A stretch of DNA of 63,303 nt, filler included, from Theionarchaea archaeon (lineage in GTDB: Archaea; Methanobacteriota_B; Thermococci; Methanofastidiosales; SZ-28-30), in NCBI GenBank assembly GCA_018992565.1. It is 6 parts of 6 records of this genome, joined end to end, with 100 filler letters (N's around TTAATTAATTAA, not from the genome) between each part and the next. Parts side by side here need not be neighbours in the genome. Positions count along the whole stretch, not along the records: positions 32,717 to 43,164 come from JACVGW010000087.1; 5 more parts are not named here. One strand, given 5' to 3'. Position 1 is the first letter of the stretch. Each line of letters opens with the position of its first letter. This document shows positions 3,187 to 58,068 of the stretch, one piece after another. Under the pieces are notes generated by a model, which saw only the letters and a list, made by a program, of their open reading frames with translations, was not told the DNA's origin and searched no databases. Made by a program: the position numbers and the translations under genes.

Positions 3187-3393
3187 AGAAACTGCCCATC
3201 CGGGCAGAGGGAGGTTGAAGTCCACCCAACCCCTGTGGGTTAGCAGGATGTCTACCTCATCTCCTCCTATTCATCACTCTTCTTAAGCTTTTTGCTAAAA
3301 TAATACGCCAAATATCCAAGAAATAGAGAAATAACGAACTTTCATGGCAAACATTTTTATGCAAGTTATCAAATGTGAAATGAGGTGGAAATA

Positions 3394-11174: not shown

Positions 11175-11274
11175 NNNNNNNNNNNNNNNNNNNNNNNNNN
11201 NNNNNNNNNNNNNNNNNNTTAATTAATTAANNNNNNNNNNNNNNNNNNNNNNNNNNNNNNNNNNNNNNNNNNNN
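11175..11274. other. Artificial contig-join spacer (N-TTAATTAATTAA-N)
   Basis: Six-frame stop linker flanked by Ns. Same pattern at 22001-22100, 32617-32716, 43165-43264 and 53239-53338. Internal contigs decrease in size (10726, 10516, 10448, 9974 bp). Confidence 0.97.
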
Positions 11275-19417: not shown

Positions 19418-20119
19418 GATGGGACTTCTATGGCAGAGTATAAATGATTTTGCAGTGACCACAGTGTCTATCAAGTGATTCTCATACTTGATGTGGAGCA
19501 TTCAGGGGCCCTCAAACCCTGGAAAGGTCTTCACTGACTTCTTTCTAGTTCATGCATCCCTTATCAGGTCCTTCTCTGGCGGGCAGTCATTCCATTCTTC
19601 AAAGGGTTGCATCATGATGATTGAATGGTATCTTGAAGTCCCACGCTCCTCACACATGACGAACACACTTTTATGTTCACATAGACATGCCTGCATTGAG
19701 ATAACCATAAAGTACGTGAGATGAAAAAGGCAGGCCTGCCATAGAAGCTCCATTTATTTCTATAGACTATACTTTCACATGAGTCGAATAGAACTGACCA
19801 AAGATTCTTAAACAACAACAACGCAACGAGATCATGGATTGCAGAAAAGTCATTATCGCCATGATGGCTTTCCCTTTCCTGTACGAAAGAATAGAAGAGA
19901 AGGGGGAACAACTCTGAAAACGATTTCTTGGGGAGAAAAGAACGTATTTCAGCCAGATATTGAGAATCCTATGAGCATAGTCAAGAACGTGGCTTTTGAA
20001 ATGAAAAAAAGATCCCTTCNNNNNNNNNNNNNNNNNNNNNNNNNNNNNNNNNNNNNNNNNNNNNNNNNNNNNNNNNNNNNNNNNNNNNNNNNNNNNNNNN
20101 NNNNNNNNNNNNNNNNNNN

Positions 20120-22000: not shown

Positions 22001-22100
22001 NNNNNNNNNNNNNNNNNNNNNNNNNNNNNNNNNNNNNNNNNNNNTTAATTAATTAANNNNNNNNNNNNNNNNNNNNNNNNNNNNNNNNNNNNNNNNNNNN

Positions 22101-29605: not shown

Positions 29606-30068
29606 GACCCTTTTGGACAGAGCGTCTGTAGGGAAAGAACACAAATTCCTGGAATTCTTCACACTGAGGGTTCTGTCACAGACTCCAAGTGCAGGATACG
29701 ATCTCATAAAAAAAGTCGAGGAAAAGACTGATGGGAGGTGGGTGCCATCCAAGGGGATGGTGTATCCTTTGCTGGACAGGATGGAACAAAAGGGATTGAT
29801 CAAAGTCCAGGAAATTGGAGAACGCTCCAAGAAGCTCTACACCATCACTGAGAAAGGGGAGAGGGAGTTGGAACACATAGAAGAACATCACAAAGAGATT
29901 AATGAACGCTTCAATATCTTCCGGAAGCTGTTTCTTGAAACCCTCTTTCCTTCAGAGGAAGCTGAATTGGCTGAGCTCTTTCTTGCACTGAGGAAGAAAG
30001 TGATGGAAGCACCAGATAAGGAAAGGGCAAAAGAATCATTACAGAAGTTCATGGAGGAATTTTCATGA
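29604..30068 (+). CDS. PadR family transcriptional regulator
   Basis: GYDLIKKVEEKTDGRWVPSKGMVYPLLDRMEQKGLI...KKLYTITEKG. Confidence 0.92.
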   Translation: MTLLDRASVGKEHKFLEFFTLRVLSQTPSAGYDLIKKVEEKTDGRWVPSKGMVYPLLDRMEQKGLIKVQEIGERSKKLYTITEKGERELEHIEEHHKEINERFNIFRKLFLETLFPSEEAELAELFLALRKKVMEAPDKERAKESLQKFMEEFS

Positions 30069-31033
30069 TCGAAACTACTGACTTGTGCAAACATTTTGAT
30101 GGGACAAAAGCAGTAGACGGTGTCACTTTCTCAGTGGATAAGGGCGAGATATTTGGATTTCTTGGGCCCAATGGAGCTGGAAAGACCACCACCATCAACA
30201 TTTTGTGCACATTATTGACTCCTACATCTGGGGAGGCCCGGGTGAATGGATATGATGTCAGCAAGAATCCCAATGAGGTGAGAAAATCCATTGGATTAAT
30301 ATTCCAGGAACCATCTCTGGATGATCGGCTGACTGCAGAGGAGAACCTTGATTTCCATGGTATGATCTATGATGTACCCAAGGGAATCAGGAAAGAAAGA
30401 AAGAAAGAACTGCTTGACATGGTGGACCTGTGGGACAGGAGGAAAGATGTGGTGAAAACATATTCGGGAGGTATGAAGCGTCGGTTAGAGATTGCACGAG
30501 GACTGCTTCACCACCCCAAGATCCTCTTCCTGGATGAGCCCACTCTGGGTCTTGATCCCCAAACAAGGAGCCATATCTGGAGATATATTAATAAACTGAG
30601 GGAAGAGCAGGGTATCACTATTTTCATGACCACTCACTACATGGATGAAGCAGAAAATTGCGATCGTATCGCTATCATTGACTACGGGAAGGTTGTTGCT
30701 CTGGATACTCCAGATAATCTAAAAAGATTTGTCGGAGGAGATGTTATTACTATTAAAACTACTGATGATGAGAAGGCGGAAAAGGAAATAGGTGAACAGT
30801 ACAACCTGCACGTCAGGAGAGATGCAGGCGGCATTCACCTGGAGATTGAGAATAGTGAAGAATTCATTCCGCAGTTCATTTCATCCTTTTCTACCAAGAT
30901 CAACTCAATTCATCTGAGGAGGCCAACTCTGGATGATGTTTTCTTGAAGTTGACCGGGCATGAGATCAGGACAGAGGAAGCTTCTGTCAGAGACAGGATG
31001 AAAGCTGGAATGAGGATGAGAGGTGGGCATTAA
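30065..31033 (+). CDS. ABC exporter ATP-binding protein (DrrA-like)
   Basis: GPNGAGKTT, YSGGMKRRLE, LFLDEPT. Confidence 0.95.
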   Translation: MIETTDLCKHFDGTKAVDGVTFSVDKGEIFGFLGPNGAGKTTTINILCTLLTPTSGEARVNGYDVSKNPNEVRKSIGLIFQEPSLDDRLTAEENLDFHGMIYDVPKGIRKERKKELLDMVDLWDRRKDVVKTYSGGMKRRLEIARGLLHHPKILFLDEPTLGLDPQTRSHIWRYINKLREEQGITIFMTTHYMDEAENCDRIAIIDYGKVVALDTPDNLKRFVGGDVITIKTTDDEKAEKEIGEQYNLHVRRDAGGIHLEIENSEEFIPQFISSFSTKINSIHLRRPTLDDVFLKLTGHEIRTEEASVRDRMKAGMRMRGGH

Positions 31034-31779
31034 TGTTCTGGAAAGCTGTTTACGTGATTTGTCTCCGGGACATCCGTCGGTTCTTCAGGGAAAAATCCCA
31101 GGTAATCGGATCGATTGCGCGGCCTGCGCTGTGGCTGGCAATTATGGGAACGGGATTTAACACAGTCTTTTCTTCATCTGGATCGGATAATTATGCTCAA
31201 TTTCTGTTTCCGGGAATTATTGGCATGACTGTGCTATTTACCAGTGTGTTTTCTGCAGTTTCAGTGATATGGGACCGCCAGTTCGGATTCCTGCGGGAGA
31301 TGCTCGTTGCTCCCGTCTCTCGAACCTCTATTGCTGTAGGGAAGACCCTGTCCGGATGTTTCCAGTCTTTGATACAAGGCTCAATAATCATGGTGCTGTC
31401 CTTCATCGTGGATGTGCATTTAAGCCCCCTCATTATCGTACAGGTGCTGGCAATCATCCTCCTGGCATCCTTTGCCTTGACTTCCATGGGATTATTGATA
31501 GCATCCCGGATGCCGTCATTTGAAGGGTTCAATCTCATCATGAATTTCCTTGTCATGCCCATGTTTCTCATGAGCGGTGCTTTCTTTCCCATTTCGGGCC
31601 TGCCAGCCTGGATGAAGTCCATAGTGACAATCAATCCATTGAGCTATGGAGTGGATGCACTGCGAGGTGTTATCCTGGGCTTCCATGAACATGCACTCAC
31701 CACCGATATCCTTTTTATGGCTGGGTTCGCAATTATCATGACAGCTGTTGCAGTGACAGCCTTCAACAAGGCGGAATAG
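31033..31779 (+). CDS. ABC-2 type permease
   Basis: DRQFGFLREMLVAPVSR, SGAFFP, NPLSYGVDALR. Confidence 0.93.
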   Translation: MFWKAVYVICLRDIRRFFREKSQVIGSIARPALWLAIMGTGFNTVFSSSGSDNYAQFLFPGIIGMTVLFTSVFSAVSVIWDRQFGFLREMLVAPVSRTSIAVGKTLSGCFQSLIQGSIIMVLSFIVDVHLSPLIIVQVLAIILLASFALTSMGLLIASRMPSFEGFNLIMNFLVMPMFLMSGAFFPISGLPAWMKSIVTINPLSYGVDALRGVILGFHEHALTTDILFMAGFAIIMTAVAVTAFNKAE

Positions 31780-31888
31780 GAAGTGGTATCATACGTAGTC
31801 CTCTCCTTCAGGTTAAGAAACCATTTCAGATGGTGGGACCAGAGAATATGGATGGCTGCACTGCTGCTGGTAAGCTGGCAGGAGGTAC

Positions 31889-32578
31889 ATGATGTTAGCT
31901 GTGAAGACTGAAAACCTTGAAATGCAGTTTACCATGGGTGACACAGTGGTCAACGCTCTGCGGGGAGTAACCCTAACCATGGACGAGGGTGAATTCATTT
32001 CTATTGTTGGCACCAGTGGTTCCGGGAAGTCCACTCTGTTGAACCTGGTGGGAGGGTTGATGAAACCCAGCGGAGGCAAGGTATTCGTAAAGGGGGAAGA
32101 TCTATCCGTCATGAACGAGAACAACCTTGCTCTATTCAGGAGAAAGTATATTGGATTCGTGTTCCAGTCTTTTAACCTGGTCAGCACTCTGACTGCTGTG
32201 GAGAATGTGGAGCTCCCATTGATATTCAGCAATTCATCTGCATCTGAGAGGGAAAAAAAAGTGACAGCTCTCCTCACTGAACTTGGGTTGGAGGACAGAC
32301 TGCACCACAAACCTACGGAATTGTCAGGAGGGCAGCAGCAGCGAGTATCCATAGCCAGAGCCATCATCAACAACCCTGAAATTATCCTTGCTGATGAACC
32401 TACAGGCAACCTGGATTCAAAGACCTCTCAGGAGATAATGGACGTCCTCTATGCACTCAATAGAAAGGGCCAGACCTTCCTGGTAGTCACCCATGATATG
32501 AATGTGGCCCACTACGGCAATCGGATTATCTACCTGACTGATGGGCAGGTCACGAGAATTGAAGAGGTTAGAACGTGA
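31889..32578 (+). CDS. ABC transporter ATP-binding protein (LolD/MacB-like)
   Basis: [29 protein letters not shown]. Confidence 0.95.
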
Positions 32579-33152
32579 AGACACTGTGGCCGGGTATCGT
32601 CCTTGTGCTCTTGCTTNNNNNNNNNNNNNNNNNNNNNNNNNNNNNNNNNNNNNNNNNNNNTTAATTAATTAANNNNNNNNNNNNNNNNNNNNNNNNNNNN
32701 NNNNNNNNNNNNNNNNATCAGACACTGGAAATAAGAAATTTCCACCTCTTTGACTCGGTAGACTGCCATATCAAAGACGCTGTAGTCACAGAATTACAGC
32801 GATTTCTGGAATACCTGGGGGGGCAGCATATTGAAGCCAAAAATGGACCAGAGTGGCTTCAGCCAGGATGTTGACTCTCCCTCTTTCTGGAGTCACGTGT
32901 ACTGTGATCCTGATCCTCTGGGTATAGACCTCAATCCAGGCCACGTGTCTCAGGGTTGTACCATATCCTTCCAAAGGCGTTGCATCACGACGCAGTTCTT
33001 CTACAGAAAAAGAATATAAGGATGAGAACGAAACTATAATGAGAACACGATGGAATGAGTGAAAAACGAATATTCCAGACCGCAACTGAGCAATGTATGC
33101 CAGATAGAGGAACATACAGCCGTATGCGTGAACACCTGACGGAGGGAAGAGA

Positions 33153-33842
33153 ATGAATCAACAATCCCTGGTGAGACAGATATTTGCCTCCACAGGAAGA
33201 TCATACGATCGTATGGTGAAGGTTACCACACTGTGGCAGGACAACATGTGGAAGAAAAGAATCCTTACAATAGCAGAACAGACTACTCCACAGACCATTC
33301 TGGATTTAGCATGCGGTACAGGGATACTGACCTTCGCACTGGCAGAAAGATTTCCTGAGAGCACGGTGGTGGGTATAGATCTTCAGCAGGAATACCTCCA
33401 GTATGCCAGAGCCAAGCAAAGGAAGAAGGATGTGAAGAATGTCAAATTCCTGCAAAAGAATGCTGAAGATGTCAGTGAAGGCCACTATGATCTCATAACT
33501 GCAAGCTATCTTCCCAAGTACATAACTATAGACGTAGTGATCAGCAACTGCTCCAGAATCCTCACTCCTCAGGGGCTGCTGATATTCCATGACTTTATAT
33601 ACCCAGAAAAGGCTGCCTTCAGGTTCTTCTACAACGTGTACTGGGTCTTCCTCAAAGCACTTCTGGGAATGTCTGATCCATGGAAAGGGATGAGCAGAGA
33701 ACTGAAGCACATAATCGTTGAAACAACCTGGGTGAATGATATGAAAGATGCACTTGAACTATATGGATTCACCAACATACAGGTAGAACCACAGCCATTG
33801 GAGGTGGCAGCTATCGTGTATGCTGTGAAGTGCAATTCATAA
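33153..33842 (+). CDS. UbiE/MenG-like SAM-dependent methyltransferase
   Basis: IFASTGRSYDRM, ILDLACGTG. Confidence 0.8.
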   Translation: MNQQSLVRQIFASTGRSYDRMVKVTTLWQDNMWKKRILTIAEQTTPQTILDLACGTGILTFALAERFPESTVVGIDLQQEYLQYARAKQRKKDVKNVKFLQKNAEDVSEGHYDLITASYLPKYITIDVVISNCSRILTPQGLLIFHDFIYPEKAAFRFFYNVYWVFLKALLGMSDPWKGMSRELKHIIVETTWVNDMKDALELYGFTNIQVEPQPLEVAAIVYAVKCNS

Positions 33843-33895
33843 GGATACCTCAATGTTTTTATAGGACTGCAGGAAGTACCTGCATGGACGCCAGG

Positions 33896-35002
33896 ATGAA
33901 AAGAGTAGTTGCTGCAACATTCATGGGACATTTTGTGGACGATGGACTCGTTCTCATGCTCCCTTTGCTTATTCCATACATAGCGCATGATTTCAATCTC
34001 TCATATACGCAAATAGGGATTTTTGGAGGTTCTCTGGTGTTGACTCTCGGATTTGGCCAGATCCTTGCTGGATATGTGTCTGATTTCTCCAAAGTGAAGT
34101 GGCCCTTCATATCTTTTGGTCTAGCTGTCCTATCTTTGAGCCTTTTTGCCATGTCATTCTGCTCATCGTACAACTGCCTCATTTTGTTGAATCTTCTGGC
34201 CGGATTCGGAGCGAGCTTCTATCATCCCTGCGGCATTGCCCTCCTGGTAAAATCCATGAAAGAAAAGATAAGGGGGAAGATCCTGGGTGTCCATGGCGTG
34301 GGTGGAGGCATAGGAATACTCATGTATCCTGTATGTGCGGGAATAATCCTGAACACGTGGGGATGGCACGAGGTACTCTTCATTTTGCCATTGACAGGGC
34401 TGGTGTCTGCAGTACTCTTTTTCTTTGTGAAGGAAGAACCCTCCTCTCATAGAGGAAGAAAGCAATTCCCCTTAATACAGAAAGAATCAATACTCATGTG
34501 TATTCTCTTTGGGTGTTTTGCCATGTTCTTCAGGGGGTTTGTGACATTTCTGCCTGTCCAGTTGGAGGAGATAGGATTTTCCACATCATCTGTGACAGGT
34601 GCTATCACGCTTTTCTATGCGACAGGGATCATTGCAGAACTCCTGGCCGGCATTCTAACTGACATGTACAGCAGGAAGAAGATAATATGTGTGTCAATGC
34701 TGGCAGCTTCTGTTCTGGTACTGGTGCTCTTCCATTCTGTGTGGGTATTTCTTGTTCCTCTGGGATTCGTCCTGTATGTCGTGTGGGTTCCAGCCACTGC
34801 TTCCTATGTCGAAGGAATACCTGAAGCATGGTATGGGACTGCACTGGGGCTGGTCCAGGGACTGGGTGGACTGATGGCTGCCTCAAGCCCTGTTATCATG
34901 GGAGTCATAGCAGAACGGAACGGAGTCCCTGCATCATTCTTTTTACTCGTCGCTATTGGTGTGGTGGGTGCAATTGTTGCCCTGAAGTTGAAGAGTGACT
35001 GA
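33896..35002 (+). CDS. MFS transporter (Fsr-like)
   Basis: ~12 hydrophobic helices, GHFVDD, GASFYHP, GILTDMYSRK. Confidence 0.88.
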   Translation: MKRVVAATFMGHFVDDGLVLMLPLLIPYIAHDFNLSYTQIGIFGGSLVLTLGFGQILAGYVSDFSKVKWPFISFGLAVLSLSLFAMSFCSSYNCLILLNLLAGFGASFYHPCGIALLVKSMKEKIRGKILGVHGVGGGIGILMYPVCAGIILNTWGWHEVLFILPLTGLVSAVLFFFVKEEPSSHRGRKQFPLIQKESILMCILFGCFAMFFRGFVTFLPVQLEEIGFSTSSVTGAITLFYATGIIAELLAGILTDMYSRKKIICVSMLAASVLVLVLFHSVWVFLVPLGFVLYVVWVPATASYVEGIPEAWYGTALGLVQGLGGLMAASSPVIMGVIAERNGVPASFFLLVAIGVVGAIVALKLKSD

Positions 35003-35077
35003 CCATTGGATTTTCACGTAGGGCTCTGAAACCATATACTCATGAGAAGGGAGATCTACGAGGGAGAAGCCGTATAG

Positions 35078-36373
35078 CTACATGCTGTTGGTGACAAACC
35101 GTTTGAGATTCTCTTCCAACATCTTGTAAAACCCTGATTTTCTGCATACGTACCCATGAGTTGTTCCCTGCGTCTCGTACACCTCAGCAGGGCACCCGCC
35201 CCTGCAGACAGGCACTATTCGACATTTCCTGCACTCATCCAGCATCACGGGATCACGGGACATGAAATCAACGTTAACATAATTGAAAACAGCTCTCCCC
35301 TCATCATTGACAACCCCAACAGCATTTTTCTCATACGGGGGGAGAATCGCACACTTGAACAGCCTCAGGTGCGGATCTATGGTAAAATAGGAAGCCCTCT
35401 GCGCGGAACACGCTCCCTGAGGAGTAGGTCTTTCAGGTTCCTCTGCTCTGAATCCCATCTTCCGAGCAACAGCATACAATTCATTCACAATGCCCAGCCC
35501 TTCCACGTCAGGCATGCAATACCCATAGGACATGCAGGCAGGAGAGGTATTGAACACAGGCTTGATGGAGATTATTACTTTGTCCAGTCCTCCTCCCTTC
35601 AATTCTTCGAACAGTGCCACAATGTCATTCTTGTTGCCTTCGTCCACGTTGATTCGTATCATGGTCCCCAGGTCATTGTCTCTGATCCGGTAGAGCCCTT
35701 CCATGATGTCTCTGAAGGTGCCCTTCCCATTCTTGTACACTCGTCTCTGATCATGGACTTTCTCTGGACCGTCCACTGTCACCAGAAAACTGCATCCATA
35801 CTGGCCCAGGGTTTCAACATTCTCCTCACTGCACAACGTGCCATTTGTGATGGCATTCACGGAAAAATCAAGTCCACCCTCTTCACACCACCTACTCAGA
35901 TCTCCGACGATTCCTTCATTTATGGGCATGTTCAGCAAAGGCTCTCCTCCAAATAATTCAATGCCGAGTGCTTTGCTGTTATAGCTGTCCGTGAGATCCT
36001 TGATGAACTGAATAGCCCGGTTACTTGTCTTTTCATCCATAACTTTGTGTTCAAGTTCACCTTTCCCTTCATAACAGTAAACACAGGAGAGGTTGCAGGC
36101 GTACGTGGTAATAACATGGAGACTGGTTGAGAGAGCATTGTATTTAGATCCATTATACGTCATGCTGTACATGTCCTGCTCATTGAGGTTGTCCTCCACA
36201 ATAATTCCGCTCTTCTTGAACCCATCTTCAAGGTCTCCAAGAGCCTCCAGGTTGCCAGTTTCCAGCACGGTTTTGACCTCCTCATCCACCACAAAGATGG
36301 CTCCTCTCAGGGAGTTGAAGAGGATGTACATAGTTTTAAAGGGGAAGAAGCAATTATAGTAGGATGGTTTCAT
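35078..36373 (-). CDS. Radical SAM/SPASM peptide maturase-like protein 2
   Basis: MKPSYYN...ILFNSL N-terminal RRE-like domain, CNLSCVYC, FGGEPL, SPASM CSA...LFKC and CRKCRIVPVCRGGC...C. Overlaps the upstream gene's 3' end. Confidence 0.88.
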   Translation of the reverse strand: MKPSYYNCFFPFKTMYILFNSLRGAIFVVDEEVKTVLETGNLEALGDLEDGFKKSGIIVEDNLNEQDMYSMTYNGSKYNALSTSLHVITTYACNLSCVYCYEGKGELEHKVMDEKTSNRAIQFIKDLTDSYNSKALGIELFGGEPLLNMPINEGIVGDLSRWCEEGGLDFSVNAITNGTLCSEENVETLGQYGCSFLVTVDGPEKVHDQRRVYKNGKGTFRDIMEGLYRIRDNDLGTMIRINVDEGNKNDIVALFEELKGGGLDKVIISIKPVFNTSPACMSYGYCMPDVEGLGIVNELYAVARKMGFRAEEPERPTPQGACSAQRASYFTIDPHLRLFKCAILPPYEKNAVGVVNDEGRAVFNYVNVDFMSRDPVMLDECRKCRIVPVCRGGCPAEVYETQGTTHGYVCRKSGFYKMLEENLKRFVTNSM

Positions 36374-37682
36374 AGGAACACCCCTCAAAGAGCTCCGGGT
36401 ATCTCAACATGATGAAGGTCCTTACGATTTCTCCCAGCTCTTCATCCTTGCACCCAGGCGAGAGCAAGGAGCCGTTCTTAGAATATGCTGCCAGTGCACA
36501 CCCACCTCCACAGATAGGCGAGAATTTGCATTCTCTGCATTCTTTAATATGCAACGGGTCTCTGAGAGTCCAGGCACAGTATGATTCATAGTTCATGTTT
36601 GTAAGGTTCCCTTCTGCATCCAGGGTACCGATTCTATGTTCCTGGTAGTTGGGAGCTGCAATGCATTTGTACACATCTCCGTGAGGATCAATGGCCAGAA
36701 AGCCATCAATGAGAGCGCTGCACCCTTCTACGAAATTGTGTATGTAGATGGGATTGGTTTTAAATCCCATGTCATGGGCCAGCTTCGACAACCTGGCCAG
36801 AGATGCAGGATCAATTTCTGAGCTCTCCCTCTCTATTTCTGTATAGCAAATATCCTTTCCTATGGGGCAAAATCCCATGTATGTCCCTTCAAATCCTCTC
36901 TTCTTGAGATCCTCCAGCAGAGACGTAATGGTGTCGTAATTATCCAGATCGACATCAACTCGTATATGGAATTTTACATCATTCTCCCGAAAGAGAGAGA
37001 TAACATCCATCAATCTCTCGTAGGTGCCCCTCCCCTTCTTGTCTACCCGTATCGTGTCATGGACAGCTCTGGGCCCGCACAGAGTTATCTGAACTTCGTA
37101 GTTGTAATCCTTCAATCTGTCGACAATCTCCTGGGTGAATAGGGTTCCATTGGAGGTGAAGGTAGTCGAGAACTGCATCTCATGTTCGTCGGCAAAGGCT
37201 TTCACCTCTTTGAGCACCTGGAATATCACTTCTGGATACAGGAGTGGCTCTCCACCGTAGAAATTTATTCCCAGAGATCTTCGCCCTCCTGCACTCTTCT
37301 TGATGAATTCAACAGTCTTTCTTATAACATCCTGTGACATGGTCTCGCTCAACACGTCTCCATGTCCCTGGTAGCAGTACGTGCAGGCCAGGTTGCAGAC
37401 ATGGGTGGGGATAATAGTAAATCCAATGGATGATGTACTGAATTTGATCCTGCAGAACATGATCTTGAGAATGTCCAGCTCGTTGAGGTTGTTGTCCACC
37501 ACAATATTTCCCTTCGTGAGGACATCAAGGACATCCTGGTCAATCTTATCAATTTGATTGTCTTTTATGAGGTTATATACCTCATCATCTATCTGGACAA
37601 TAGATCTTTTCATGGTATTAAACACAAGGCCTTTTTTCTCCTTTTCATCCAGGAGATATACATTATATGCAGATTCTTTCAT
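36354..37682 (-). CDS. Radical SAM/SPASM peptide maturase-like protein 1
   Basis: MKESAYN...LVFNTM N-terminal RRE-like domain, CNLACTYC, YGGEPL, CSA...GDVYKC and CRECKFSPICGGGC...C. SD GGAGGTGG at 37687-37694. Confidence 0.88.
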   Translation of the reverse strand: MKESAYNVYLLDEKEKKGLVFNTMKRSIVQIDDEVYNLIKDNQIDKIDQDVLDVLTKGNIVVDNNLNELDILKIMFCRIKFSTSSIGFTIIPTHVCNLACTYCYQGHGDVLSETMSQDVIRKTVEFIKKSAGGRRSLGINFYGGEPLLYPEVIFQVLKEVKAFADEHEMQFSTTFTSNGTLFTQEIVDRLKDYNYEVQITLCGPRAVHDTIRVDKKGRGTYERLMDVISLFRENDVKFHIRVDVDLDNYDTITSLLEDLKKRGFEGTYMGFCPIGKDICYTEIERESSEIDPASLARLSKLAHDMGFKTNPIYIHNFVEGCSALIDGFLAIDPHGDVYKCIAAPNYQEHRIGTLDAEGNLTNMNYESYCAWTLRDPLHIKECRECKFSPICGGGCALAAYSKNGSLLSPGCKDEELGEIVRTFIMLRYPELFEGCSYETILL

Positions 37683-37928
37683 AGTTCCACCTCCTTTTTA
37701 GGCATTGCAGGTCAGTTGTTCCTGAGATGAACCTGTATTGCACCTTTGGTCTTGTACGCTGGGCTATGTAAGACTGTATCAGGTTTTTTTCACATTGACT
37801 ATATAAATCCTCCTCTTCCAGACTATCGTGATGGGTTCTTATTTCTGTGTGTTTCCCTCGATCATTCCGTCACAGACAGCTCACATCTTTTGAAAAAAAA
37901 TGAAAAGAAAAAAACATGCCATGTAGAG

Positions 37929-38081
37929 CTACATCCACGGGAAGTTCCCCAGATAACAGTGCAAGTAGGGGACTTTTCCTGTCCTGCATTCCCCAGGTTC
38001 TGCAGGGGAGTATCCATTTCTACAATTTCCCAGGATTCCTCCAGAACTATCCACCTCTTCACTTATGAGCTTGGCATACAC
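37929..38081 (-). CDS. Putative RiPP precursor (50 aa): MYAKLISEEVDSSGGILGNCRNGYSPAEPGECRTGKVPYLHCYLGNFPWM
   Basis: SD GAGGAGGTGA 5 nt before GTG 38081, three CxxGxxP motifs, T-rich terminator (~37892-37914). Lies directly upstream of two rSAM/SPASM genes on the same strand. Confidence 0.85.
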   Translation of the reverse strand: MYAKLISEEVDSSGGILGNCRNGYSPAEPGECRTGKVPYLHCYLGNFPWM

Positions 38082-38105
38082 TATTGTCACCTCCTCACTG
38101 GTTTA

Positions 38106-38247
38106 CCACTGACTCCTGAATTTCACTTTTCTCTGTCTTGGACAGAATCTAGCCAAATCAGTCTCTGGCAGAATATAAGACCATTGTAGTGAACAGAAAT
38201 TCCGTTTAACGTGGAGTCAGTAGAGAATTATGATACATATATATAAA
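38106..38247 (-). promoter_or_regulatory. TATA box and structured ~140-nt 5' leader of the CxxGxxP peptide gene
   Basis: TTTATATATAT at 38237-38247. 38108-38116 pairs with 38213-38221 (9 bp) and 38118-38124 with 38196-38202 (7 bp). Internal hairpins at 38132-38146 and 38152-38169. Confidence 0.55.
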
Positions 38248-38323
38248 TCTTTCCAGTTTGCTGATATGGGATACTACTGTGTGAGATAGCTTCCAGAAAG
38301 GTAAAAAGATAAGAGACAGCAGT

Positions 38324-39307
38324 CTATACTGCAGGCTTTCTGCTGCTCTTCCTGTAGTATGCTGATCTATTCAAAAGGTAGAGTCTTGCAGCCCAAGATA
38401 CCGGGCGCATCAACCATCTCCTGACCCCCACTACCTTTCTCACTTCCGTATAGTAGTCTTCAAGAGTGTGGTGCTGGTATTTCAACAATGCCTGGCTTCT
38501 GGTGGTATCCATGAATCCACAGTGGAATTTCCCCGTGCTGAAGGCTTCTTCAGGCAGGCATGTACTCCCCAGCCCGAATATATCCATCATACACCGTATA
38601 TACTCCCTATACGTTGTTCTGCATCTTTCTCCTCCTGCAATGTGATAGATTCCTCCCCAGATTTCGTCACATACCACAGCATTAGCCAGGGCAACTCCGA
38701 CATCTTTCGTGTGGCAGATTTCAATGGAGGTTTCCAGTGGCATGTGAAACATGAGCGGGTCCATTTCCAGCTTGTCTGGAGAAACAATGTAGGTCAATCT
38801 GAAGATAGCCCATTCAACATGTGACTGTGTAATGCGGTTCTCTGCTTCGATTTTAGTTTTCGCATAGTCATCATCATCGTTGGGGGCTACAGCATCTGTG
38901 ACTTGTATGAACGGGGTTTGTACCCGATCTCCATAAACGGCTATCGAGGACGTGTATATCAGCCTGGGTCTTTTCTCCCGGGATTCCATGGCAGCGAGAA
39001 TATTCTCTGTTCCACCCACATTCACGGCTCTTGCCAGCCCTGGGTTTCTGTCCGCGAGGGGTGGAATAATGGCTGCCACATGAATGACTACATCAATAGT
39101 CTCATCAATTGCTTCAAAAACTTTCTCTCTACTGCGTAAATCCCCCCAGAATATCTCCACCAGGGGATGATCCTCAAATGCCTGTGCACGGGTCCTGTTT
39201 TGACCCGTTTGAACATCAAAGACTCTAACAGAATATCCTCTAGCAACAAGCTCCTCAAGTGTACTCATTCCCACGTTGCCAAAGGCACCAGTTAATAACA
39301 CTTTCAT
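38324..39307 (-). CDS. NAD-dependent epimerase/dehydratase (extended SDR)
   Basis: VLLTGAFGNVG, YTSSIAVYG, YAKTK (YxxxK). Confidence 0.88.
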   Translation of the reverse strand: MKVLLTGAFGNVGMSTLEELVARGYSVRVFDVQTGQNRTRAQAFEDHPLVEIFWGDLRSREKVFEAIDETIDVVIHVAAIIPPLADRNPGLARAVNVGGTENILAAMESREKRPRLIYTSSIAVYGDRVQTPFIQVTDAVAPNDDDDYAKTKIEAENRITQSHVEWAIFRLTYIVSPDKLEMDPLMFHMPLETSIEICHTKDVGVALANAVVCDEIWGGIYHIAGGERCRTTYREYIRCMMDIFGLGSTCLPEEAFSTGKFHCGFMDTTRSQALLKYQHHTLEDYYTEVRKVVGVRRWLMRPVSWAARLYLLNRSAYYRKSSRKPAV

Positions 39308-39506
39308 CGACAAAACCTCACTGTGTATGTTCTCTCCTTGCATTCTCTACATACGTAGAATTTCTATGTACGTAGTATGTCTATACACTTATAAAGGTTT
39401 CGACAGTGATTGTGATGTGATAGCAGTCCTGTTGCAGCTACCCTCTGCACTTCCCGCACACTTTGAGGAGGAGAACCCCCAACATCAGCAATCTCATCTT
39501 CCGACA

Positions 39507-40382
39507 TCAACCCATTTTCATTAAGTACTCGGCAATTCCGTACCCTTTCTCTGTTCCACACGTGAATGCAGTCAAGTTTTCATTGAGTACAGATATTCCA
39601 GTTCCTCTATAAGGAATCTGTGCTGTATTGAGAACATCCCCAGTCAGGGTGAAGTCCCTTCCTTTAACGTCTCTGATACAGTATGTGACTCTCTTCTGCC
39701 TCCCCTTCTCAGTGATAGTCTCTGTTCTTACGTCCCGTACAGGAGTATTCTCTCCATTTTTCATGATGAATCCTGTGCTGATTTCTTCCCTCTTGAGAAG
39801 CATCTGAGCAATATTAATCCCAAATTCAGGGCTAAAGGGGGCAGTCGCATATATCCAGAGATCGGGAGCATTCCAGTCACGTTCCCCCCAGCTGTGGTCT
39901 CTCTCTCCCAGAGCCGAAATGTCATGCGAATGGGAATCCACCGTTATGTGCCCTGTCACCAGGCCCATCTGCTCGTAATGGTCCTCACACACCACTCTAC
40001 CGATCTCATGCTGTTGAGGGGTGACGCACTCTAGATAGCTGAACTCTGTATGGAGGGGTGAGTATCCCAGTTCCACAGAGACCTTTCTGATAGTTGACTT
40101 CTCACCTGCCATATTACCTGAAAACGTTAGAGTCCATTCTGGAAGATACCGTAGAGAGCCTACCTCTATTCTTTCTGGAACGGTTTCAACTTCTTCCCGG
40201 AAGATGACTTTCAGGATCTCATCCTTATAGAACAGGAACATATACCCGACTGCCTCCCTCTTGTTGGGTTTGAACCCTATCCGGGTGAATCCACCAACAC
40301 GGTTCCTGGGATCATAGAAGTTGAAATAGTAGCTCTCATTCCATTCAATTTCCGGGCCAGGTGGATGTTGAAGATGTTCCAT
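39507..40382 (-). CDS. Hypothetical beta-barrel protein (tocopherol cyclase/AttH-like)
   Basis: WNESYYFNFYD, HYEQMG, GERDHSWGERDW, GYGIAEY motifs. Confidence 0.6.
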   Translation of the reverse strand: MEHLQHPPGPEIEWNESYYFNFYDPRNRVGGFTRIGFKPNKREAVGYMFLFYKDEILKVIFREEVETVPERIEVGSLRYLPEWTLTFSGNMAGEKSTIRKVSVELGYSPLHTEFSYLECVTPQQHEIGRVVCEDHYEQMGLVTGHITVDSHSHDISALGERDHSWGERDWNAPDLWIYATAPFSPEFGINIAQMLLKREEISTGFIMKNGENTPVRDVRTETITEKGRQKRVTYCIRDVKGRDFTLTGDVLNTAQIPYRGTGISVLNENLTAFTCGTEKGYGIAEYLMKMG

Positions 40383-40383
40383 G

Positions 40384-42855
40384 CTACTTCACCCATACTT
40401 CTCCTGTGTTGCCATTCACAGTGACAGTATCCCCATCCTTGAGGTACTGCATGGCATTCTTTACACCTGTGACAGCAGGTATTCCATACTCCCTTGAAAC
40501 CACAGCCCCATGAGAGAGTATTCCCCCTGTCTCTGTGATGACTCCCTTGATCTTGATGAAGACAGGAGTCCACCCGGGGTCTGTACATGTTGCCACCAGA
40601 ATCTCATCCTTCTGGATAGTATGAAGCTCCTCAATGTTCTGTATGAGCCTCACAGTGCCTGTGACCACACCTGGACTTGATGCAACACCTGTGAGGGCTT
40701 TGTGATAGGACACATCCTCGTCAAATTCCAGGTTGCCCTGGAGGAACTTGGGGGGAAGTGTGTGCTGGTATTCGTGAAAATCTGCTTTTCTCCTGGCCAA
40801 AAGATCAGCAGGTAGCTCCCCTGTCTGCAGGGCTGTGAACACCTCCTCCTTGAACAGGAAGAACACATCATCTCTATCCTGTACCACGCCTTTCTGAACC
40901 AGCCTCTTTCCAATTTCCAGGAACACGGTCCTGAACCTGTAATCCTGGTGATCTAGAAAGAACCTCTGGTTCTCTCTGAACCCGATATATACCTGAGCGT
41001 ACTTCAATATCATCTTGAACACCTGCTTCTTAATCAGGCCAAATTGCAGGGTTTCAATTTCATTCAGGACACTCTCTGTGAGTTCTTCTCTCTGGGCTTT
41101 CTTCTCCGTTTCAATCTGCTGGACATCTCTCTCATTTTCTGCCAGCGAATCCACAATGTCGATAATGAGCTGAGGCTTTTCCCGCCAGGTGGGGAAGATA
41201 ATGTCTCTGGAATAGGAACGATGACCATACTGATTCAAAAATTTCTGGAGTTCAACATCGAAATCGACCTTTTTTCTGGGTCCCACCAGGTTGTATATGG
41301 CGATATTGGTCTCTGTGGCCTTATTGTGTGGGAGACCTGATACCAGAGTATTGTAGGTCTGGTCAGGATCGCCATGGTACCATGACATGAGTAATCGCTT
41401 CAGTATCATATTCATGCCCATATTGTGGGTGGCAATTCCCCACCGTACCAGGCGGTAGTGTTTCAAACACAGGTTGTAGAGATACCAGAATGTCTCTATG
41501 AGTTGCTCATCTGTCAGAGCTTCAAGGTTAATGCCATCATGCTCTATCAAGTCTTCAAGGTAGTTCTTGGAGAATTCATTGTACTTCGCATACGTGTTGA
41601 AGATGGTGCCATCCCAGTCTAAGAGAGCGATACGCAGCTCAGCCAGAATGCGCTTCCGCAGATTGAAGGGTAAATCTCTCATGGTCTGGCGTTCATGTTC
41701 TGGAAAGTAGTCCAGCAATTCTTTCACCCTGCTCCACCGTGGATTGTACTTGAACACTTCACGCAAGACGGTGGTATTGAAATACGCATGTGCTTTGTGG
41801 TACCGGAGCAAGGGGACACCTTCCAGCTCAGTGTAGCCCATGATCCTGTTGCCTTCCTGGTTAACATATACATCAAGAAATTCACCCAGTACTGAAAAGT
41901 ACAGAGGAGAGGTTACACCTGTCCAGTAGTCATCGCTGTATCCCCTGGTCCACACATCTTCTTTTCGGGTGGTGATAGGTCGTGCCTGGAAGATATGGAT
42001 CTCGCCCTCATAGATGCCAAATTCCACGTCCTGAGGTGCACCTAGCTGGGCCTCTATATCAAGACAGGTCCTGCAGAGTTCAGTGAGGACGACATCATCC
42101 AGACACAGACTGCGCTTACAGGGAACAGCCCGAATACCTGAGGGCGACAGCACTTTCTGGTAATTCTGGTCAGATAGCTCCCTGGAAGTGACTTTCAAGG
42201 TACGTGTGAGAACGTACCGATCTGGTGTTATCTCTCCTGCAACCAGTGACTCTCCCAGACCGTGCACTGCTTCTACCACAATCTCTTCACGTGACGTGAG
42301 AGGGTTCCAGGTGAATACCACACCTGAGACTTCACAGGGCACAGCTTCCTGAATAATCACTGCCATCTTGGGTGGGGTTTCGCCCACTCGTGAATGGCGG
42401 TATGCCAGGGCCCGTTCATTCCAGAGACTGGCCCAACACTGCTTGACTCCCTTTTCCAGGGTTTCTGGGTTGAAAAATGTCTCTTGCTGGCCCGCAAAGC
42501 TTGCGTGAGGGAGGTCTTCCAATGTAGCAGAGGACCTCACTATCACATTCTTGTAAGAGACAGTATTCAATACTCCCCTTATTTCTTCAGGCATTTCGCC
42601 CTCCATGATTAAATTCTTGATAGTGTCTGCTGTTTCTCTGAGATGTTCTGGACTCTCGTAGTCTGCAGTGGTGGCTATGGTGTTAAGGTGAGTACTGAGA
42701 CTATTATGTCTGCAGAAGAGGTCGTATGCCTCTGTGGTCAGGCATATACCATCAGGAACATGCATATTGTGGAGTTTCATCAGATTGAAAGCTTTTCCTC
42801 CCACCAGGGTGATTTCTGGAGCTGGTTCTCCAAGAGATACCATAATCATAGACAT
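40384..42855 (-). CDS. PEP-utilizing dikinase-family phosphotransferase (rifampin phosphotransferase-like architecture)
   Basis: VGGKA, VRSSATLED...SFAGQ and FQARPIT ATP-grasp domain, long central domain, C-terminal swivel domain TDPGWTP...GGILSHGAVVSREYGIP. Confidence 0.85.
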   Translation of the reverse strand: MSMIMVSLGEPAPEITLVGGKAFNLMKLHNMHVPDGICLTTEAYDLFCRHNSLSTHLNTIATTADYESPEHLRETADTIKNLIMEGEMPEEIRGVLNTVSYKNVIVRSSATLEDLPHASFAGQQETFFNPETLEKGVKQCWASLWNERALAYRHSRVGETPPKMAVIIQEAVPCEVSGVVFTWNPLTSREEIVVEAVHGLGESLVAGEITPDRYVLTRTLKVTSRELSDQNYQKVLSPSGIRAVPCKRSLCLDDVVLTELCRTCLDIEAQLGAPQDVEFGIYEGEIHIFQARPITTRKEDVWTRGYSDDYWTGVTSPLYFSVLGEFLDVYVNQEGNRIMGYTELEGVPLLRYHKAHAYFNTTVLREVFKYNPRWSRVKELLDYFPEHERQTMRDLPFNLRKRILAELRIALLDWDGTIFNTYAKYNEFSKNYLEDLIEHDGINLEALTDEQLIETFWYLYNLCLKHYRLVRWGIATHNMGMNMILKRLLMSWYHGDPDQTYNTLVSGLPHNKATETNIAIYNLVGPRKKVDFDVELQKFLNQYGHRSYSRDIIFPTWREKPQLIIDIVDSLAENERDVQQIETEKKAQREELTESVLNEIETLQFGLIKKQVFKMILKYAQVYIGFRENQRFFLDHQDYRFRTVFLEIGKRLVQKGVVQDRDDVFFLFKEEVFTALQTGELPADLLARRKADFHEYQHTLPPKFLQGNLEFDEDVSYHKALTGVASSPGVVTGTVRLIQNIEELHTIQKDEILVATCTDPGWTPVFIKIKGVITETGGILSHGAVVSREYGIPAVTGVKNAMQYLKDGDTVTVNGNTGEVWVK

Positions 42856-43012
42856 CCTTGCTGCAGGGGATTTATAAGGTTTATCGGAAGAATAGAGGGC
42901 TCAAACCAGATTGCATATAGAACACTGCTCAAGATAGGAAGAATAATGGTACTCATGGTCTCCCGGGACTTTTTTCCATGGATTCTTCACATGATCGGGA
43001 GAAGACCTGCTC

Positions 43013-43164
43013 TTATCCACCATTTTGCGGGGAGGTGTCTGTTCTCGCTTCTCTCAGGAGCGCTGAGGCTTTCTCCTGGAGTGCTCTGCACTTTTCTTCT
43101 GAAGCCCCTCTCGCGCAACAGAGATGTCCAAACAGGAGGAGACTCTTTCCGAGCTCGTACCTGT
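43013..43164 (-). CDS. C-terminal fragment of a probable TPR-like protein (5' truncated)
   Basis: Manual translation RYELGKSLLLFGHLCCARGASEEKCRALQEKASALLREA...GG*, an amphipathic helix pair. Confidence 0.35.
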
Positions 43165-43264
43165 NNNNNNNNNNNNNNNNNNNNNNNNNNNNNNNNNNNN
43201 NNNNNNNNTTAATTAATTAANNNNNNNNNNNNNNNNNNNNNNNNNNNNNNNNNNNNNNNNNNNN

Positions 43265-53234: not shown

Positions 53235-53378
53235 GAAGNNNNNNNNNNNNNNNNNNNNNNNNNNNNNNNNNNNNNNNNNNNNTTAATTAATTAANNNNNN
53301 NNNNNNNNNNNNNNNNNNNNNNNNNNNNNNNNNNNNNNAACCTTCAACCTTTTTAAACACGCGGAAAGACACGTATTC

Positions 53379-57489: not shown

Positions 57490-58068
57490 ATGCACTATGG
57501 AATTGAGGTTGTCCCTTTTGGGGAGTTTGGAGATCCCNNNNNNNNNNNNNNNNNNNNNNNNNNNNNNNNNNNNNNNNNNNNNNNNNNNNNNNNNNNNNNN
57601 NNNNNNNNNNNNNNNNNNNNNNNNNNNNNNNNNNNNNTGCTTGTCAAGGTGTGGTCAGGGAACCCTGTAACGTATGAGGGAAACCACTACACTGTCAAAG
57701 GCATGACTGCTGTTTCCACACCGATACAGACCACGATTCCCGTGTGGATTGGGGGTGAAAGCAGGGCTGCGCTGCGCAGAGCAGCTCACTGGGATGGCTG
57801 GATCATAGGAACCATCAATGAGAAGTGCGAGATCATAAGGTCGCCAGAAAAGCTCAGAGAAGAGATTTCGCATATTCAAGAATATCGCGCTCGCGATGCT
57901 ACATTTGATGTGGCCATTGATGGGATATCCAGGCCCGGCAATAAAGATATTGAACTCGTGCACCAGTATGAGGAGGCGGGTGCCACATGGTGGTTCGAGG
58001 GGATCTTCGGGCTGCGGGGAAGCAAGGAAGAGATGCTAGATCGCATCATCGCTGGACCACCCACGTGA
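57490..58068 (+). CDS. Luciferase-like (LLM) flavin/F420-dependent oxidoreductase, interrupted by scaffold gap 57538-57637
   Basis: VTYEGNHY, PVWIGGESRAALRRAAHWDGW, EAGATWW. Confidence 0.8.
   Translation: MHYGIEVVPFGEFGDPXXXXXXXXXXXXXXXXXXXXXXXXXXXXXXXXXXLVKVWSGNPVTYEGNHYTVKGMTAVSTPIQTTIPVWIGGESRAALRRAAHWDGWIIGTINEKCEIIRSPEKLREEISHIQEYRARDATFDVAIDGISRPGNKDIELVHQYEEAGATWWFEGIFGLRGSKEEMLDRIIAGPPT

Follow-up and report, generated by a model that had tools for sequence, protein, structure and literature searches.

A dispersed family of short C-x-x-G-x-x-P peptides in Theionarchaea, with a pair of radical SAM/SPASM enzymes as its candidate maturases

The stretch of DNA considered here (the window) comprises 63,303 nucleotides (nt) of the Theionarchaea archaeon assembly GCA_018992565.1, six parts of six records joined end to end. 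It raises the question of whether a 50-codon open reading frame (ORF), lying upstream of two tandem radical S-adenosylmethionine (SAM)/SPASM genes, encodes the precursor of a peptide that is made on the ribosome and modified after translation (a RiPP), and whether these two enzymes, here called B1 and B2, are the ones that modify it. The peptide gene, B1 and B2 are located on one 10.4-kb contig (C52, window 32717-43164) of a genome, G000, of 2.8 Mb in 154 contigs that is 88% complete. G000 has seven members of the peptide's family, itself included, and we consider it probable that they form a dispersed Theionarchaea precursor library which is cross-linked in trans, B1 and B2 being the likeliest enzymes to do so.

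The ORF is a real gene, and chance is excluded as its origin. It runs on the minus strand from a GTG start (38081-38079) to a TAG stop (37931-37929) and its translation, MYAKLISEEVDSSGGILGNCRNGYSPAEPGECRTGKVPYLHCYLGNFPWM, contains Cys20, Cys32 and Cys42, each within a C-x-x-G-x-x-P motif. A leader of approximately residues 1-17 is followed by a core of three G-x-C-x-x-G-x-x-P units. The automatic ORF list begins this ORF 9 nt earlier, at GTG 38090, within the ribosome-binding site; position 38081 is the better start because all seven copies of the family in G000 open with M-x-A-[KRAE]-L-[IV], 5-6 nt after GGAGGTG. Two other strains of the organism, represented in public metagenomes, show that five of six changes within the ORF are silent. 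In run X18 these were four out of four, one of them converting TAG to TAA, and in run X17 one of the two changes was silent and the other was D11G in the leader. The adjoining 246-nt spacer carries eight changes in one of the two strains. Moreover, when stop-to-stop segments of the real genome were compared with those of three codon-shuffled copies, segments with at least three C-x(2,3)-G-x-x-P motifs in about 45 amino acids (aa) numbered six against 0, 0 and 0, and five of the six real ones have the family leader.

The single peptide had no Pfam or NCBIfam family match, a word-based search with it returned only itself and no usable match was found in the ESM Atlas. A six-frame motif scan of G000, however, revealed six further ORFs of the same kind on contigs C1, C97, C105 (three) and C106, and all seven copies have GGAGGTG 5-6 nt before an ATG or GTG. 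A profile built from these seven copies detected seven more members in the congeneric genome G002, six of them preceded by GGAGGT, and no members in the other 59 relatives, save one weak match in G053 (Thermococcales, E 4.3e-4), which was found on reading to have no leader and was taken as chance. With the resulting profile of 14 sequences the family was found in two of the 34 genomes of the order (G000 and G002). The same profile gave 156 matches at E<=1e-3, and 14 at E<=1e-10, among 1.84 billion representative proteins. Counts of length, leader and anatomy rest on 150 matches listed of the 156; among these, 135 are of 100 aa or fewer and 132 have the leader. The candidate substrates of the family are peptides of 43-90 aa. 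Five long matches (P0006, P0048, P0082, P0103 and P0107), which resemble either low-complexity repeats without relation to the family or proteins of eukaryotic type, were set aside.

Family members have no Pfam or NCBIfam match, and the names in the sources, where given for ten clusters examined, were "hypothetical protein". The model ScmA (TIGR04252) gives the window peptide 16.2 bits (E 0.009) against a cut-off of 35, and three of the 14 members match it in this weak manner. The associated enzyme model ScmE (TIGR04250) scores B2 at 58.5 bits against a cut-off of 400, so that the system falls outside SynChlorMet. In the open literature, subscription papers and supplements being outside its scope, no description was found of the motif, of Theionarchaea or Methanofastidiosa in connection with RiPPs or radical SAM enzymes, or of SynChlorMet.

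The anatomy of the family is highly regular. Positions 1-9 of the leader are M, F/Y/H, A, K/R/E, L, I/V, S/T/A, P/S/A and G, and the first Cys stands at residue 19-21 in 117 of the 132 leader-bearing members. Each member has from two to five Cys (three in 79 of 132), spaced 10-13 residues apart in 276 of 313 intervals. Altogether 359 of 445 Cys lie within C-x(2,3)-G-x-x-P; a further 66 have the C-x(2,3)-G but lack the Pro, and in 62 cases such a Cys is the final one of its peptide. Of 226 C-x-x-G-x-x-P units, 139 have a Gly two residues ahead. Entropy by column is near 0 bits for M1 and for the Cys, Gly and Pro that make up the units, rises to 0.2-1.0 bits for A3, L5, I6 and G9, and reaches 3.4-4.0 bits across the remaining core positions. 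As judged from these alignments, a fixed address, fixed scaffold atoms and free loops make up the pattern of a precursor library, and both G000 and G002 have multiple precursor genes (seven each) with a conserved leader and a hypervariable core. Every gene stands alone behind a strong ribosome-binding site, at places dispersed along the chromosome, some of them beside the enzyme pair.

A sequence-only reading of the window had already given the coordinates, sequence and start codon of the ORF correctly, with GAGGAGGTGA ahead of GTG 38081 and three C-x-x-G-x-x-P motifs. Its view that an unfamiliar repeated Cys motif was present is borne out by a real conserved gene with 14 copies in two genomes and the profile matches cited above. 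It had also proposed a leader ending near GG, which must be given up: the GG of residues 14-15 is not conserved, the conserved glycines being G9 and the one two residues before each Cys.

Four larger metagenome proteins (P0005, P0007, P0008 and P0143, of 202-514 aa) have an N-terminal PqqD-like domain and, behind it, tandem C-x-x-G-x-x-P units numbering up to about 30. In appearance they are giant relatives of the peptide family bearing their own peptide-binding domain. The Pfam PqqD scores of P0005 and P0007 are 23.9 and 23.6 bits, against a cut-off of 23.4, and the fusion of about 30 repeats to a PqqD domain in these two ties the motif to peptide-maturation machinery. Two other peptides, at L045:7556 onward (+) and L046:1416 onward (+), begin with the leaders M-R-A-T-L-I-Q-P-G and M-F-A-E-L-I and lie beside B1 orthologues with other Cys cores, one of the two having three copies of a 15-residue C-F-V-S-G-C-Y unit. 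To judge by these sequences, the family leader may address several core types.

B1 and B2 lie on the same strand as the peptide gene, with the start of B1 247 nt downstream of it. The two overlapping paralogous radical SAM/SPASM genes of the sequence-only reading were found as described: they overlap by 20 nt, share about 29-30% identity and begin MKESAYN..VFN (B1) and MKPSYYN..LFN (B2). Each has the CX3CX2C motif that binds the SAM [4Fe-4S] cluster (C96/C100/C103 in B1, C93/C97/C100 in B2). In B1 this motif and nine further Cys (279, 321, 340, 369, 382, 385, 391, 395 and 411, in the SPASM region) occur in all or nearly all of 11 orthologues; in B2 the motif and ten further Cys, those of the SPASM region including 280, 286, 322, 341, 381, 384, 390, 394 and 410, are invariant in 10 orthologues. 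The set CX2CX5CX3C with its flanking Cys, as expected of two auxiliary clusters, is invariant in both clades, and since the cluster-binding Cys are retained neither enzyme resembles a dead copy. The Pfam SPASM model gives B1 18.1 bits, below its cut-off of 21.5, and does not report B2; the fold alignment with CteB runs through the C-terminus.

The best NCBIfam families of both enzymes are all maturases of Cys peptides, and every score is below its cut-off. For B1 and B2 respectively these are 284.4 and 313.3 bits for CefB (cut-off 600), 220.5 and 182.1 for TIGR04463 (525), 193 and 161 for Clo7bot (600), and 166.6 and 148.9 for PapB (340). The nearest solved structure by sequence is CteB 5WGG (E 3.7e-25 for B1, 4.6e-20 for B2), and a Foldseek search with the B1 model gave CteB 5WHY as best match (E 7.7e-16, 444 columns, full length, about 20% identity). 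The enzyme type had been called CteB/PapB-like. The first half of that label stands, CteB being the closest solved structure by sequence and by fold, whereas for PapB there is resemblance and not membership. At the six CteB-alignment positions highlighted by catalytic-site proximity profiling (PMC10288494), B1 has Y104, Y142, T176, T200, I341 and A342 where CteB has F, F, T, S, H and Q. [quoted passage not shown] CteB, which aligns with the model over 444 columns, has a domain of this sort. The N-terminal domain of B1 and B2 is a probable candidate for leader binding.

In a phylogenetic tree B1 and B2 form two clades (100/100 support) that co-diverge, and one B1 occurs with one B2 at 10 of the 15 B1 loci. 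Loci with the order B2-then-B1 (G000:C64, G001 and L048) form their own subclade (100/99). The B1 orthologues are a discrete set of 62 clusters with 52-89% identity, the next relative falling to 39%. All those that are named come from "Theionarchaea archaeon" (NCBI class Theionarchaea), and a G002-like contig is catalogued as "uncultured Thermococci archaeon". A search of a contig collection with B1 returned just one orthologue and one 32% relative from Lachnospiraceae. Short Cys-rich ORFs of 38 and 36 aa were also seen upstream of distant B1/B2 relatives with 33-35% identity, about 170 nt upstream of position 3359 on G000:C154 and about 140 nt upstream of position 19926 on G000:C71.

Do B1 and B2 then serve the peptides? 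In G000, two of the three B1/B2 pairs (contigs C52 and C105) have peptide genes on the same strand at a distance of 147-777 nt, which accounts for four of the seven copies. On metagenome contig L043 a canonical peptide is found 1.6 kb from the pair, and at L045 and L046 leader-bearing peptides with a different Cys core are directly beside it. Furthermore, peptides were found in the genomes with the order B1-then-B2 (G000 and G002) and not in G001, whose only pair belongs to the B2-then-B1 subclade. The sequence-only reading had held that lack of the peptide beside orthologous enzyme pairs would speak against it, and the outcome was divided. The canonical peptide accompanies B1 at three of 15 loci (the window, G000:C105 and L043), or five of 15 when variant cores are counted, and 10 of 15 have no leader-bearing peptide in the flanking DNA examined. 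Five of the latter (L041, L044, L031, L048 and L049) lack it over 1.8-3.5 kb examined on both sides and the other five are bounded by contig ends; L040 and L042 are near-identical, therefore the 15 loci are not all independent. The remaining three G000 copies and all seven of G002 lie away from any B1/B2 pair. As adjacency is not the rule across loci, the "cluster" of the window is better understood as a single node in a multi-copy precursor family whose genes are dispersed, and gene order supports the link between enzymes and peptides only in part.

Besides these loci a number of findings weigh against B1 and B2 as the enzymes of the family. In G002 every one of the seven peptides is an orphan, with neighbours such as the genes for Phe-tRNA synthetase, CoA transferase, a chloride channel and ThyX and a radical SAM gene in none of the 22 ORFs scanned around them, and in G001, 91% complete, a B2-B1 pair is present but a search down to E<=5 gave no peptide. 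A look for small ORFs behind a ribosome-binding site beside C64, G001:C33, L048 and L049 yielded no credible Cys peptide. The copy on G000:C97 (equivalent to L010:464-6082) is followed on the same strand by a different enzyme set, which consists of a methyltransferase, a protein with DUF3795, a PqqD protein of 204 aa, a 448-aa radical SAM/SPASM enzyme and a 606-aa B12-binding radical SAM enzyme. This set may serve the family as an alternative or additional means of tailoring. G000 is in any case rich in candidate maturases, with 51 matches to B1 at E<=1e-10 and 28 places where at least 250 residues align to B1 or B2. As to the enzymes themselves, no PqqD match was obtained in B1 residues 1-88 or B2 residues 1-85 at E<=10, and the model of B1, built from an alignment of five sequences, is of poor quality (mean pLDDT 60.5). 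The units show no conserved acceptor residue apart from Gly or Pro, and a Pfam scan of the neighbourhoods of peptides and enzyme pairs revealed no consistently present protease or exporter. Finally, one metatranscriptome run contained 6% of the words; its one 224-nt contig falls on 37090-37313 within B1 and none covers the peptide, and this weak hint from the sole RNA-library contig may be due to DNA carry-over.

Much of this would be explained if the peptides were true radical SAM substrates of another maturase set, for example that of C97 or other SPASM enzymes, with their position beside B1 and B2 reflecting a general clustering of maturation genes or a local duplication. The B1 loci without a peptide (12 of 15 for the canonical core), the orphan peptides of G002, the peptide-less pair of G001, the full alternative set with its discrete PqqD protein and the many B1-like genes of G000 all agree with such an explanation. 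Nevertheless, two independent G000 loci have peptides close to B1/B2 on the same strand, and leader-bearing peptides lie by the pair in other populations (L043, L045 and L046). Around the G002 peptides neither radical SAM nor PqqD genes were seen among the 22 neighbours scanned, therefore any enzyme there, whichever it is, acts in trans. Taking both sides together, another maturase set seems to us unlikely.

A different view would have the family unmodified, as small Cys/Gly/Pro peptides that are, for example, metal- or sulfur-binding, redox-active or signalling, the N-terminus serving another purpose. The genes are indeed scattered among housekeeping genes, a dedicated protease or exporter is not consistently nearby, the family has no annotation, and Theionarchaea were named for a predicted sulfur metabolism. 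This view fits poorly, however, with the conserved leader, invariant scaffold and hypervariable loops, with three Cys in 79 of 132 members (which argues against simple disulfide pairing), with the fusion of the motif to a PqqD domain in larger proteins and with the non-random enrichment of peptides beside B1 and B2 in G000; we rate it below the previous one. Hardly any weight can be given to the idea that the ORF is a chance frame in a spacer and that the real gene, should there be one, is the opposite strand's frame of 147 aa. The ORF is short, starts with GTG and lacks a family match, but fourteen paralogues in two genomes share its ribosome-binding site and start, the profile has 156 matches, only one of six strain changes alters a residue and the codon-shuffled genomes contain nothing comparable. 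The competing frames at 37746-38189 (+, 147 aa) and 37862-38062 (-, 66 aa) have no Pfam match.

If B1 and B2 are the maturases, as we favour, they would read the leader common to all precursors and modify those close by as well as those far away in the genome. CteB and its relatives abstract a hydrogen from a peptide carbon and bond that carbon to the Cys sulfur which an auxiliary cluster holds. By analogy, every Cys would form a thioether with a carbon of the unit in which it lies, so that small rings, none nested in another, would follow one another along the chain; one ring per unit is most likely, that is three rings in the window peptide with 2 Da lost per ring. Both enzymes would probably be needed, as a complex or in sequence, which is suggested by their strict pairing and co-divergence. 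Leader removal and export would be expected to follow.

The acceptor is less easily predicted. The fixed residues near each Cys are limited to the Gly at +3 or +4 and the Pro three residues later, and characterised ranthipeptides use Asp, Thr or Asn. The alpha-carbon of the invariant Gly is the leading candidate, on the analogy of streptosactin and with weak support, and a variable neighbour or the Pro could serve as alternatives. Streptosactin (GggA/GggB) likewise has a Cys-x-x-Gly unit, and PMC8172795 describes S-C-alpha bonds between Cys31 and Gly34 and between Cys25 and Ser28, in unnested four-residue rings of which the former is closed from sulfur to the Gly alpha-carbon. In other respects it differs, being bacterial, regulated by quorum sensing and made by one enzyme with a protease in the cluster, with no Pro scaffold and no multi-copy library. 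The GggB model (NF050038) gives B2 65 bits against a cut-off of 650 and is absent from the 25 best families listed for B1. Non-hairpin sactisynthases of the streptosactin type resemble ranthisynthases in sequence more than they do hairpin sactisynthases (PMC10288494), therefore sequence cannot decide the acceptor carbon.

Among known systems CteB/CteA (thermocellin) is similar in that the enzyme has an N-terminal domain, a radical SAM core and a SPASM domain with two auxiliary clusters, and acts on a small Cys-containing substrate. The SCIFF maturase model TIGR03974, on the other hand, has a cut-off of 425 bits and scores B1 at 121 and B2 at 90, and SCIFF systems use one enzyme where a pair is present here. 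The SCIFF core, in which about 45 residues contain six Cys and the acceptor is a Thr, is unlike G-x-C-x-x-G-x-x-P. CefB (NF038107, "Cys-every-fifth") is the best curated family for both enzymes, which align with it nearly end to end, but both score well below its cut-off and the Cys spacing here is 10-13 and not five; nothing was found under this family name in the open literature searched. In ranthipeptides of the PapB/freyrasin type (NF047865) each of several repeated Cys motifs in a short peptide receives one small thioether ring, none of them nested, and the analogy with the peptides described here would lie in this arrangement. The substrate motif of PapB is CX3D. A conserved Asp or other side-chain acceptor after the Cys is absent in the present family, which adds to the low PapB scores.

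CrpC of the methanogen Methanococcus voltae is an archaeal SPASM radical SAM enzyme. PMC13692751 reports that it forms thioethers on repeated C-x-x-acceptor motifs (CAGM, CAVD, PCAGD and CPLVL), tolerates different acceptors, and has substrates whose N-terminal region is conserved and whose C-terminal region is repetitive and bears the Cys. Its family, TIGR04463, is the second-best for both B1 and B2, yet neither reaches the cut-off. CrpA is, moreover, a large protein with ten 17-residue repeats and no G..P scaffold, and the system has no enzyme pair, its substrate genes lying beside the enzyme gene in one cluster (PMC13692751).

The layout of the family, as distinct from its chemistry, can be compared with that of the prochlorosins (ProcA/ProcM). 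Genomes with that system have many precursor genes, several at a distance from the gene for the enzyme, and these combine a conserved leader with a core that is hypervariable. A single set of enzymes is presumed to serve all precursors, and service in trans has been shown. ProcM is a class II lanthipeptide synthetase of cyanobacteria that works by dehydration and Michael addition, unlike B1 and B2. Trans service, shown for the prochlorosins, would thus be proposed for the Theionarchaea family by analogy.

Systems that combine a radical SAM/SPASM maturase and a Cys-repeat precursor are already known in kind. What is new is the precursor family with its scaffold, its size and hypervariability, the dispersed multi-copy layout, the enzyme pair and the archaeal lineage. 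To our knowledge radical-SAM-modified peptides are well studied in bacteria and scarcely in archaea. The one biochemically tested archaeal thioether case that was found dates from 2026 and concerns a large protein (PMC13692751). If the proposed action of B1 and B2 is true, the system would be a compact leader-addressed route to strings of small rings with free loops, attractive for peptide engineering, as well as a natural test of two paralogous maturases sharing one substrate and a first view of peptide use by uncultured sediment archaea. If B1 and B2 do not act so, the function of the family is still to be explained. A bolder version can be put forward tentatively, and we think it doubtful: a genome-wide combinatorial library of ring scaffolds, in which one co-evolving pair would read M-F-A-K-L-I-x-x-G and staple every unit on the Gly alpha-carbon, with the same chemistry repeated about thirty-fold in the PqqD-fused proteins and the loops free to diversify. 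It would represent the first archaeal sactipeptide-type family and a radical SAM counterpart of the prochlorosins.

The features of the contig are collected in Table 1. TATA-like boxes, at variable distance, precede seven of the 14 family genes inspected, and T runs similar to the candidate terminator follow several paralogues of the peptide gene.

Table 1. Position of the peptide gene, the enzyme pair and nearby features in the window
Feature	Position	Strand	Basis and remarks
Class I SAM methyltransferase	33153..33842	+	Pfam/NCBIfam match; upstream of the MFS gene and overlapping it
Major facilitator superfamily (MFS) transporter	33830..35002	+	Pfam MFS_1 E 2.5e-44; convergent with B2
B2, paralogous radical SAM/SPASM enzyme, 431 aa	35078..36373	-	Pfam Radical_SAM E 1.2e-15
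B1, radical SAM/SPASM peptide-maturase-like, 442 aa	36354..37682	-	Pfam Radical_SAM E 1.9e-21
Candidate separate promoter for B1-B2, TTTATATA	37800..37807	-	From sequence; about 120 nt upstream of B1
Candidate archaeal terminator, T-rich tract	37893..37914	-	Directly after the peptide stop codon
Precursor-peptide gene, 50 codons and stop	37929..38081	-	Translation; identical 50-aa protein on record as P0004
Ribosome-binding site GAGGAGGTGA	38087..38096	-	5 nt before the GTG start
Candidate archaeal TATA box TTTATATA	38240..38247	-	From sequence; 166 nt upstream of the peptide start

The window contains N runs at 11175-11274, 20020-20119, 22001-22100, 32617-32716, 43165-43264, 53239-53338 and 57538-57637, which are the joins between contigs C47, C50, C51, C52, C53 and C54 together with two 100-N gaps within contigs. 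The ATP-binding cassette (ABC) transporter genes at 30065-32578 are on a different contig and therefore cannot be counted as neighbours of the peptide. Upstream of the peptide on C52, on the same strand, are a short-chain dehydrogenase/reductase (SDR) epimerase-like gene, a DUF7065/DUF7064 gene and a gene for a phosphoenolpyruvate (PEP)-utilising enzyme. A methyltransferase gene, such as the one at 33153..33842, follows the family peptide on G000:C97 too.

DNA near-identical to window 35078-38300 (84-99% of sampled words) was present in 19 metagenome runs from seven studies, with the source labels marine sediment, estuary, mangrove, soil and sediment; 16 of the 19 are flagged as possible assembly sources, therefore they provide no independent evidence on habitat range. 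The MFS transporter is a possible candidate exporter for the peptide. An MFS gene is also found 3' of B2 at L043, and none was seen at the other loci. At four of the 15 loci a gene for a Peptidase_M29 aminopeptidase (L044:6564-7502, L045:6175-7251, L031:6211-7155 and L049:5635-6723) was observed directly 3' of both enzyme genes or, as in L049, of a lone B1. G000 has nine M29-like genes, none of them on pair-bearing contigs. Its position at these four loci makes the M29 aminopeptidase a candidate for the enzyme that trims the leader.

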